Origin: a virus
Taxonomy: Duplodnaviria; Heunggongvirae; Uroviricota; Caudoviricetes
Reading direction: 5' to 3' (one strand)
IMG/VR virus record: IMGVR_UViG_2778261565_000018
Location: 1-36,928 of that record
DNA: 36,928 nt
Shown here piece by piece: positions 4,625-11,278 of the stretch. The stretch's first letter is position 1; the number at the start of each line of letters is the position of its first letter. The notes beneath the pieces are model-generated. The model saw only the letters and a list, made by a program, of their open reading frames with translations, was not told the DNA's origin and made no database searches. The position numbers and the translations under genes are program-made.

Positions 4625-4972
4625 TCATACCTGGTCTCTCTCATCTGCTTCTGCTTTCGCCACCATCATTTCCAGCTTTTGTGAAAGGGATGCGGCTAAC
4701 GTATGAAATTCTTCGTCTGTTTCTACTGGTATTGGCACAAACCTGACTCCAATTTGAGCGAGGCTATGTGCCATCTCGATACACGTTCTTAACTCAACAG
4801 GAGATGCTTTGTGCATACAGCCCCCCCGTTTATTATTTATCTCCTCAGCCAGCCGCTGTGCTTTCAGGGGATTTCTGATAACAGAAAGGCCGGGAAATAC
4901 CCAGCCTCGCTTTGTAACGGAGTAGACGAAAGTGATCGCGCCTACCCGGATATTATCGTGAGGATGCGTCAT
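4625..4972 (-). CDS. Hypothetical early protein, about 115 aa
   Basis: ORF track; start chosen at ATGA overlap with exo stop. Confidence 0.5.
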
Positions 4973-8454: not shown

Positions 8455-8727
8455 TCATCTTGCTGTCAGTTGTTTGGATTTCCGGTAGCCTGCCGCGTAA
8501 AGAGCTACGTTCGGAAGACAAGTTGAACCTTCATATTTTCTGGTCAACGTTGTCAGTGTTATTACTTCTGCTCTCATTGCTGGTTTGCGCTTGCATTGCA
8601 AGACCACTCGTGAAGGGGTTGGCCTGTGTAGCTTGTCGGAGCTGATCGCCTCCTGACTTTGCAGATTTGCGCGACGAGCTCTACGGCGAGAAGCTGCGGT
8701 GCCTTTAAATTCTGTTTTTCTGGACAT
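8455..8727 (-). CDS. N: N-like transcription antiterminator (P22 gene 24 type), 90 aa
   Basis: Arginine-rich motif GTAASRRRARRANL; C terminus VALYAAGYRKSKQLTAR resembles P22-type N; GGAGG RBS; sits downstream of nutL. Confidence 0.75.
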   Translation of the reverse strand: MSRKTEFKGTAASRRRARRANLQSQEAISSDKLHRPTPSRVVLQCKRKPAMRAEVITLTTLTRKYEGSTCLPNVALYAAGYRKSKQLTAR

Positions 8728-8825: not shown

Positions 8826-8871
8826 TGGCTTTTCAGCCACGTAGTCGAGAGTCGACGTTGTTTAAAGAGCC
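8826..8871 (-). promoter_or_regulatory. nutL: nutL (boxA GGCTCTTTAA; boxB UGGCU-GAAA-AGCCA)
   Basis: Minus-strand read; near-identical architecture to nutR at 11505-11550. Confidence 0.6.
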
Positions 8872-8916
8872 TGCCAGTCTGTTCCATTTGGCTTCCAGCG
8901 TCCTGCTGACGGTTAA

Positions 8917-8995
8917 ATAGTACGATATGTACTTTACAAGATCAATACAATTTGTTGTAAGTTGGCGTGGTTTTTTATAACGCTTTGTATTTAAT
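8917..8995 (-). promoter_or_regulatory. pL promoter with OL operator region
   Basis: Minus-strand TTGATC (-35), 17 bp, TACTAT (-10); motifs ATATGTACTTTAC and ACGCTTTGTA shared with OR. Confidence 0.45.
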
Positions 8996-10509: not shown

Positions 10510-11169
10510 TCACCCAAACGTCTCTTCAGGCCATTGGCTGGCGATAACTTTCCCCACAACGGAACAACTCTCATTGCATGGGATCATTGGGTATTGTGGG
10601 TTTAGTGGCTGTAGAAACACCTGACCGCTATCCCTGATCAGTTTCTTGAAGGTAAATTCATCACCACCAAGTCTGGCTATGCAGAAATCGCCGGGCTCAA
10701 CAGCTTGCTCAGGGTCAACCAGAATTAACATCCCGTCAGGAAAGCTGGGTTTGGAACCTGTTGGTGCGGTCATTGAGTTACCTTCAACCTCAAGCCAGAA
10801 TGCAGAGTCACTGGCTTTTTTGGTTGTGCTTACCAATCTCTCCGCATCGCCTTTGGTAAAGGTTCTGAGTTCTGGAGAGAACATCCCAGCCTGAACATGA
10901 GAAAAAACAGGGTACTCATATTGTTTTTTAACTGGGGCCGATGAGTATTCGCCAACAGGTGAAAATGTCCCGTCGTGGTTGAATGATATGTTATCAATAC
11001 CAAGGTATTTAAACACCACACCAATATCACTAAGAGATGGATGACGAGATCCGCGCAACCAGTGTCCAATCCCACCCTGCGTCATACCTAGCTCTTCGGC
11101 TAACTTCTCTTGAGTTATGCCGAGCTCTTTCATTCTGGATCTAGCCAGTTCATACCATTTCATTTTCAT
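10510..11169 (-). CDS. cI: CI-type repressor: XRE-family HTH N-domain plus lambda-cI-identical C-terminal S24 domain
   Basis: C-terminal about 135 aa ([21 protein letters not shown]...QWPEETFG) match lambda cI; N-terminal HTH differs; start taken at MKMKWYEL, alternatives upstream. Confidence 0.9.
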
Positions 11170-11278
11170 GTCCTTATTATTACGCTTTGTACTGGAACCA
11201 TCCATGCACAATGTGTATTTTTACTTGTATTCGTAAAGTACATATTGTATTTTTATTCGTGTTTACTATGGAGGGCAT
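11170..11278 (+). promoter_or_regulatory. OR operator region with divergent pR/pRM
   Basis: Between divergent cI and cro; TTGTAT-17 bp-TATTTT candidate pR; motifs GTAAAGTACATAT and ACGCTTTGTA shared with OL. Confidence 0.5.

Follow-up and report, generated by a model that had tools for sequence, protein, structure and literature searches.

The question raised by positions 8917-8995 of the 36.9-kb window (the whole stretch of DNA that was analysed, identified as a lambdoid prophage) is whether they hold sites for the prophage's own cI and Cro proteins and, if they do, which bases make up those sites. These positions are intergenic DNA upstream of N, the position expected for OL. The partner region at 11170-11278 lies between cI and cro, the position expected for OR, and the distance between the two regions is 2.26 kb; cII, O, and P follow downstream of cro. 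A first-pass annotation had noticed two words shared by the regions, GTAAAGTACATAT and ACGCTTTGTA, and had taken them for likely cI and Cro binding sites. We predict with high confidence that OL and OR are the cI/Cro operator regions of a lambdoid prophage. The placing of both regions in the switch was right in kind, but the quoted words are not the operators.

Six Dyad Sites in OL and OR

Reading OL and OR for dyad symmetry revealed six 15-bp pseudo-palindromes with TAC-N5-GTA cores (Table 1), which follow the consensus A-R/W-TAC-N5-GTA-Y-T or, with flanks, wA(G/A/T)TAC-N5-GTA(C/T)Tw. The 17-mer at OL1 (8918-8934) is TAGTACGATATGTACTT. A motif search for three operators per region had been suggested as a check on the shared words, and it returned three in OL and three in OR. 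When the window was scanned with a half-site PWM, the six sites scored 15.7-21.3, the best non-operator position scored 9.6, and these six were the only dyad sites of this type in the window. The PWM was also rebuilt for each site from the other five and run over 36,912 positions. In these leave-one-out scans OR1 ranked 1, OL1 ranked 3, OL2, OL3, and OR3 each ranked 6, and OR2 ranked 8, which makes it the weakest of the six sites by this measure. Neither a fourth site nor a mirrored OR2, 25 bp away from OR1, was found in the window, by eye or with the PWM.

The centre-to-centre distances, counted from O1, are 25 bp (OL1-OL2) and 33 bp (OL2-OL3) in OL and 32 bp (OR1-OR2) and 26 bp (OR2-OR3) in OR, so that the two regions do not mirror each other in geometry. 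Along the plus strand, a close pair comes first and a wide gap second in each region. The near mirror image that had been described for pL and pR does hold for the O1 and O2 pairs. It extends neither to the spacing nor to OL3 and OR3, which are identical at 13 of 15 positions in direct orientation and at 8 of 15 when one of them is mirrored.

Table 1: Features of the OL-OR interval and its neighbours, ordered by position in the window.
Feature	Position	Strand	Sequence elements	Remarks
N antiterminator	8455-8727	-		Gene driven by pL; Pfam N_peptide, E=3e-32
Lambda-like boxB hairpin	8839 to 8826	-	TGGCTGAAAAGCCA	Candidate nutL
Small hairpin	8844-8856	-	GTCGAGAGTCGAC	Candidate nutL; between the boxA-like and boxB-like elements
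boxA-like element	8870 to 8862	-	GCTCTTTAA	Candidate nutL
Candidate pL	8917-8945	-	-35 TTGATC (8945 to 8940), 17-nt spacer, -10 TACTAT (8922 to 8917)	
OL1	8919-8933		Core AGTACGATATGTACT	Perfect AGTAC-N5-GTACT palindrome
OL2	8944-8958		Core AATACAATTTGTTGT	Shares 2 nt with pL -35
OL3	8977-8991		Core ATAACGCTTTGTATT	Contains ACGCTTTGTA (8980-8989)
ORF, 250 aa	9164-9916	-		Pfam DUF1828 (E=5e-8), PADLOC PDC-M24B (E=6e-10)
ORF, 185 aa	9913-10470	-		Weak matches: Pfam DUF6978 (E=2e-4), PADLOC PDC-M24A (E=5e-4)
cI repressor, 219 aa	10510-11169	-	ATG at 11169	Pfam HTH_3 and Peptidase_S24
Candidate PRM	11176-11204	-	-35 TGGATG (11204 to 11199), 17-nt spacer, -10 AATAAT (11181 to 11176)	
OR3	11179-11193		Core ATTACGCTTTGTACT	Contains ACGCTTTGTA (11182-11191)
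OR2	11205-11219		Core TGCACAATGTGTATT	Abuts PRM -35
Candidate pR	11225-11253	+	-35 TTGTAT (11225-11230), 17-nt spacer, -10 TATTTT (11248-11253)	
OR1	11237-11251		Core AGTACATATTGTATT	Shares 4 nt with pR -10
cro, 71 aa	11279-11494	+		Pfam HTH_3

The Words Shared by OL and OR

The longer word, GTAAAGTACATAT, forms an inverted pair between OL and OR as the first-pass annotation had stated, and it is exact at both places: at 8925-8937 on the minus strand, where the plus-strand form is ATATGTACTTTAC, and at 11233-11245 on the plus strand. Just these two matches occur in the 36.9-kb window, even when up to 2 mismatches are allowed, and the word does lie inside the spacers of both pL and pR, as had been noted. 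The shorter word, ACGCTTTGTA, is likewise exact in both regions, although its OL coordinates, first given as 8981-8990, were off by one (Table 1); the match around it extends to 16/18 identity (family D10). Chance sharing was gauged by resampling the two AT-rich regions 3000 times with a first-order Markov model. The sharing of the 13-mer is non-random, since an exact shared word of at least 13 nt appeared in just 0.27% of the resamplings. A shared word of at least 10 nt appeared in 6.3% of them, and the sharing of the 10-mer, taken alone, is only suggestive. Laid over the dyads, GTAAAGTACATAT consists of a GTAA flank (4 nt) followed by the first 9 nt of O1 (AGTACATAT), and ACGCTTTGTA spans the centre of O3 together with the adjoining 2 nt of its left half and 3 nt of its right half.

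Candidate Promoters

The hexamers and 17-nt spacers that had been proposed for pL and pR were all found as described (Table 1). Candidate pL has a predicted start near 8910, with transcription towards N, and candidate pR reads into cro. A generic sigma-70 scan with a threshold of 9/12 reported neither of them, because pL matches the consensus at only 8 and pR at only 7 of 12 positions. The promoters were assigned from geometry and from conservation in relatives. By consensus count alone, a rival register for pR that lies 6 nt upstream (TTTACT-17-TATTGT) is equal to the one proposed. The proposed register is the one annotated in NC_004913 and is also backed by the layout of the relatives; since the TTGnnn/TAnnnT layout is present in all four of the distant relatives described below, it is favoured over the alternative 6 nt upstream. 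Candidate pR matches the 'putative major rightward promoter' of NC_004913, and the -35 of candidate PRM is that of the 'putative maintenance promoter for CI' in the same record.

OL1 and OR1 each overlap the first 4 nt of the -10 hexamer, of pL and pR, respectively. OR2 is centred at about -43 from the predicted PRM start, and OR3 lies within the PRM spacer, with a 3-nt overlap with the PRM -10. The candidate PRM -10 is 6 nt from the cI ATG, an arrangement that suggests a leaderless, lambda-like cI mRNA.

The Sites Belong to the VT2-Sakai/PST1 Immunity Type

The novelty implied for these sites was not borne out. Going by their sequence, the six sites are already known: database features and published tables list them as operators predicted for the VT2-Sakai/PST1 immunity type. 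The predictions for the VT2-Sakai type are said to go back to Fattah et al. 2000 and Sato et al. 2003. The record NC_004913.3 (Stx1-converting phage, Morioka V526) carries six 17-bp 'putative operator' features, which correspond to the six window cores plus one base on each side, together with a putative pR and PRM. Compared with the published 17-mers, OR1 (AAGTACATATTGTATTT), OR2 (ATGCACAATGTGTATTT), and OL1, which is identical to the published and annotated OL1 of the VT2-Sakai type, show 0 mismatches, whereas OL2, OL3, and OR3 show 1 each. The window has GTTGT where the published OL2 (CAATACAATTTGTTCTA) has GTTCT, ATAAC where the published OL3 (TACAACGCTTTGTATTT) has ACAAC, and T for C in the centre of the published OR3 (TATTACGCTCTGTACTG). 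All three of these single-nucleotide alleles were found in other IMG/VR loci, and the window thus carries common natural variants of the sites.

The same six 17-mers are given as putative PST1 operators by Yin et al. 2015 (Table S5 of PMC4587872) and as VT2-SA operators in Table S1 of PMC10742460; both papers refer to Fattah et al. 2000 and treat the sites as predictions. In Table S5 (Additional file 6 of PMC4587872) the L/R labels are apparently swapped with respect to gene order when judged against NC_004913, the N-adjacent sites being called OR1-3 and the cI-cro sites OL1-3. The sole binding data found were from an EMSA of lambda CI on VT2-SA oligonucleotides, which gave a micromolar apparent affinity, and according to PMC9803871 there is no published CI-DNA structure for VT2-SA or Stx2 I. 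For the cognate repressor, the literature searched yielded neither footprints nor EMSA data, nor any mapped start sites.

This immunity type is common among E. coli lambdoids; the Stx2a prophage of Sakai has it, as do many other Stx phages, in which the predicted operators would bear on induction thresholds. In practical terms, the analysis gives precise positions in the window prophage for the six sites, pL, pR, and PRM, and the comparative data back the sites more strongly than did the original prediction by eye. Beyond correct annotation the result means little.

The cI and Cro Proteins

In tblastn searches, residues 1-90 of cI were 100% identical to those of the NC_004913 Stx1-converting phage, PA4/PA18, Nil2, WGPS8, and 2B8 and 98.9% identical to those of VT2-Sakai. 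The N-terminal domain is also 100% identical to that of 1717-type phages and of several Stx2a phages. Residues ~85-219 are near-identical to the lambda repressor (3BDN, 1F39, 1KCA) over a stretch that takes in the cleavage-site region as well as the C-terminal domain, an S24 domain of the self-cleaving type (Peptidase_S24). The cI protein is a mosaic of a VT2-Sakai-type HTH N-terminus and the lambda hinge and C-terminal domain, its residues ~85-219 corresponding to lambda 102-236, and it joins the cooperativity and cleavage module of lambda to another DNA specificity. The N-terminal domain of cI is 35% identical to Cro (E=1e-12), and the HTH domains of the two proteins are homologous, with recognition helices one residue apart (TQGAIGHW in Cro and TQGGIGHW in cI). 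The immunity region as a whole is 99.6% identical to those of phages ev207, ev017, and PhiR57_1.

The Interval between cI and N

The two ORFs between cI and N overlap and occupy the rexAB position, and a terminator-like hairpin on the minus strand at 9160-9139 follows the pair. The pair is probably a candidate defence cassette, expressed by the prophage in one transcript with cI. Other cargo occupies this position in Stx2 phages of the same immunity type. A candidate nutL (8826-8870, minus strand) was recognised in the pL-N leader from sequence alone, and its elements are listed in Table 1.

Natural Variation among Homoimmune Loci

An IMG/VR scan with the cI N-terminal domain gave 80 homoimmune loci with 97-100% identity, among which there were 29 distinct OR and 33 distinct OL sequences. 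Intergenic alignment columns were sorted into half-site columns (operator positions 1-5 and 11-15), centre columns (positions 6-10), and spacer columns. Variable columns made up 15% of the 60 half-site columns, 33% of the 30 centre columns, and 50% of the 115 spacer columns, and the difference between half-site and spacer was significant (Fisher p=3e-6). Of these loci, the 62 in which both O1 sites were recognised were tabulated. The OL1 core was invariant in 62/62 and the OR1 core was the same in 61/62, and the TTG of the -35 hexamers was essentially fixed. TTGA of the pL -35 is kept in homoimmune loci, as TTGATC or TTGACC. At OL2 the half-site columns are mostly kept, with changes falling in the centre and in the weak right half.

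The 6-nt stretch that separates the -35 from the O1 core varies (TCGTAA, TTGAGA, TCGCAA, TCAAAA, TTAATG, and others). Since GTAA is hypervariable among homoimmune loci, we infer that this part of GTAAAGTACATAT is unconstrained and that the identity of OL and OR over it is peculiar to the allele combination of the window and is not part of the operator. The flanks of OL1 and OR1 were also compared within genomes; they matched at 1-5 of 8 positions, with no consistent pattern. Concerted evolution, or an extended operator at the O1 flanks, was dropped for lack of consistent flank co-variation.

Distant Relatives with Homologous Repressors

The repressors of SPN9CC, Midgardsormr38, Vibrio H8, and ST64T are 45-55% identical to cI in the N-terminal domain and 46-69% identical over the full length. 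Their OR regions are compared in Table 2; those of loci L085-L088 (L087 being ST64T) were read by eye. The three-site layout of OR, with spacings of 26 and 32-34 bp, recurs in 4/4 relatives, and a positional equivalent of OR3 is present in each. A CAC-N5-GTA site at 26 bp from O3 was found in 3/4, the left half being degenerate in Vibrio H8.

Table 2: OR sites of the window and of four relatives with homologous repressors.
Phage	O3	O2	O1	Spacing (bp)
Window	ATTACGCTTTGTACT	TGCACAATGTGTATT	AGTACATATTGTATT	26, 32
Salmonella SPN9CC	TATACAATTTGTATC	GTCACAAATCGTAAA	AATACGATGTGTATA	26, 33
Erwinia Midgardsormr38	CATACAATCTGTATT	GACACATTTTGTATA	GATACGAAATGTATA	26, 32
Vibrio H8	ATTACTCAGTGTAAT	Left half degenerate, right GTAAT	ATTACGAAATGTAAT	26, 32
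ST64T (phage L type)	ATTACGAGATGTATT	CACACATATTGTATT	AGTACGAAATGTATT	26, 34

In all four relatives a TTGnnn hexamer is followed after 16-17 nt by TAnnnT, which begins with the TA in the right half of O1. A -10-like hexamer also overlaps the cI-proximal half of O3 in 4/4, at 6-7 nt before an ATG, and by analogy with lambda this suggests that their PRM transcripts may be leaderless as well. The layout of pR and PRM is thus the same as in the window, whereas the bases of the centres and flanks differ, and SPN9CC has a different preference at half-site positions 2-3 (ATAC). The recognition helix of the ST64T repressor, TQGAIGHW, is the same as in the window Cro and is one residue from that of the window cI, and the operators are very similar. 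At positions 611-700 of its locus, the ST64T OR reads AGTACGAAATGTATT, CACACATATTGTATT, and ATTACGAGATGTATT, very close to the OR sites of the window. Partial cross-recognition between the ST64T and window immunity types seems possible from these sequences.

Operators, Shared Words, or Promoter Cores

It is very improbable that recognition rests on the asymmetric words GTAAAGTACATAT and ACGCTTTGTA themselves, each present once in OL and once in OR. Each word does occur without mismatch in both regions of the window, and a shared 13-mer is rare by chance. Yet in loci whose cI N-terminal domain is 100% identical, GTAA is replaced by GAGA, GCAA, AAAA, TTAA, or AATG, while AGTACATAT-GTA is fixed, and the O3 centre GCTTT varies as well, with GCTCT prevailing at OR3 and GCATT found in part of the OL3 alleles. 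The two words would moreover leave OL2 and OR2 unexplained, though both of these sites are backed by the PWM and by the relatives. We likewise give hardly any credence to the idea that the likeness of OL and OR comes from shared promoter cores, or from a duplication of pL/pR, in which there are no repressor sites. The strongest shared stretch is indeed inside the promoter spacers, and OL1 and OR1 do overlap the -10 hexamers. The conserved positions, however, are the dyad TAC/GTA half-sites and not the -35 and -10 hexamers, the DNA between the -35 and O1 varies freely, and the same dyad is found at OL3, OR3, OL2, and OR2, not all of which are promoter cores. The sharing of a recognition helix by the HTH domains of cI and Cro also speaks against promoter cores, as does the functionally analogous phage 933W, whose footprinted 15-bp operators have the same GTAC-N5-GTAC geometry.

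Proposed Switch

Taking the six dyads as cI/Cro operators, the lambda paradigm and the geometry of the sites lead to the following model. Dimers of cI would bind all six sites. At O1 and O2, cI would repress pL and pR, with the O1-bound dimer blocking RNA polymerase at the -10 and the OL2-bound dimer covering part of the pL -35. Bound at OR2, beside the PRM -35, cI may activate its own transcription, and bound at OR3 it would repress PRM, so that negative autoregulation would result. Cro would fill these sites in reverse order, with PRM as the first promoter to be shut. RecA-stimulated self-cleavage of cI would induce the prophage, and cI dimers would interact through pairwise cooperativity and through looping of the 2.26 kb between OL and OR. 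Self-cleavage, cooperativity, and looping are all expected because the hinge and C-terminal domain of cI are those of lambda. The lambda-style cooperativity at OR1-OR2 is assumed by analogy, for a spacing of 32 bp versus 24 bp in lambda.

The spacing bears on a further alternative, in which the operators are real but the switch follows a logic other than that of lambda, either without cooperativity between OR1 and OR2 or with pairing of OR2-OR3 and OL1-OL2 (25-26 bp). We regard this as unlikely. The spacings (OL 25/33, OR 32/26) are unmirrored and unlike the 24/23 of lambda, the OR pattern of 26 and 32-34 bp is kept across the repressor family, and the 933W repressor is reported to be non-cooperative (PMC3317979). 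On the other hand, the lambda C-terminal domain mediates cooperativity via a flexible linker, and 32 bp is close to three helical turns, which would put both dimers on the same face of the DNA. There is also a small chance that this repressor family, joined in the window to the cooperativity domain of lambda, has a conserved non-lambda layout of OR3-26-OR2-32/34-OR1, with OL as a translated copy and the O3 pair in direct orientation, and a different cooperative or looping logic. If true, the three-turn pairing of OR1 with OR2, or the pairing of OL1-OL2 and OR2-OR3, would amount to a non-lambda logic. Some residual novelty may lie here, limited to the geometry of OL and OR and to dimer pairing.

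Comparison with Known Switches

In lambda the sites are spaced 24/20 and 24/23 bp. A lambda-like O1-O2 spacing of about 24 bp on both sides was not found in the window, where OL1-OL2 comes close to it but OR1-OR2 does not. The layout is nevertheless of the lambda type: cI and cro diverge around three dyads, and another three dyads lie upstream of N. As in lambda, the operators are tripartite on both sides of cI, with about 2.3 kb between OL and OR. By their geometry, O1 would lie over the first 4 nt of the lytic -10, OR2 beside the PRM -35, and OR3 over PRM, and the cI ATG follows the candidate PRM -10 by 6 nt; in its hinge and C-terminal domain the repressor is essentially identical to that of lambda. 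Unlike in lambda, the cores are TAC-N5-GTA, to which the lambda sequence (TATCACCGC...) is unrelated, OR2 of the window is clear of the pR -35, and Cro, an HTH_3 protein, is a paralogue of the N-terminal domain of cI.

The window shares with 933W a 15-bp dyad with xG(T/A)AC half-sites. The 15-bp operators of 933W have been footprinted by the Koudelka lab (PMC3317979); in each half-site, positions 4-5 are an invariant A-C and positions 2-3 are G/T. Its oR1, CGTACTGAAAGTACG, shares the GTAC-N5-GTAC geometry with OL1 of the window; the 933W operators are at 4776-4846 of its locus (L002). A 933W immunity type was rejected for the window, as the repressors are 19% identical and the Cro proteins gave no alignment. 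933W has only two OL sites, whereas the window has three. Its OR1-OR2 and OR2-OR3 distances are 24 and 32 bp, so the order of the gaps is the reverse of that in the window, although the 32-bp gap is common to both. The 933W residues S41 and K46, reported to contact bases, align with Q31 and H36 of the window cI in a pairwise alignment. The likeness between the 933W and window dyads could reflect distant common ancestry or convergence.

In VT2-Sakai (Sp5), NC_004913, and the PST1 Stx2a phages, the order of the operators relative to N, cI, and cro is the same as in the window, and NC_004913 also has the same proposed pR and PRM hexamers. The window prophage differs from the VT2-Sakai/PST1 phages in its cargo between cI and N, which is the DUF6978/DUF1828 pair. 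Its cI has a full lambda-type C-terminal domain, whereas cI is present as fragments in the VT2-Sakai record.
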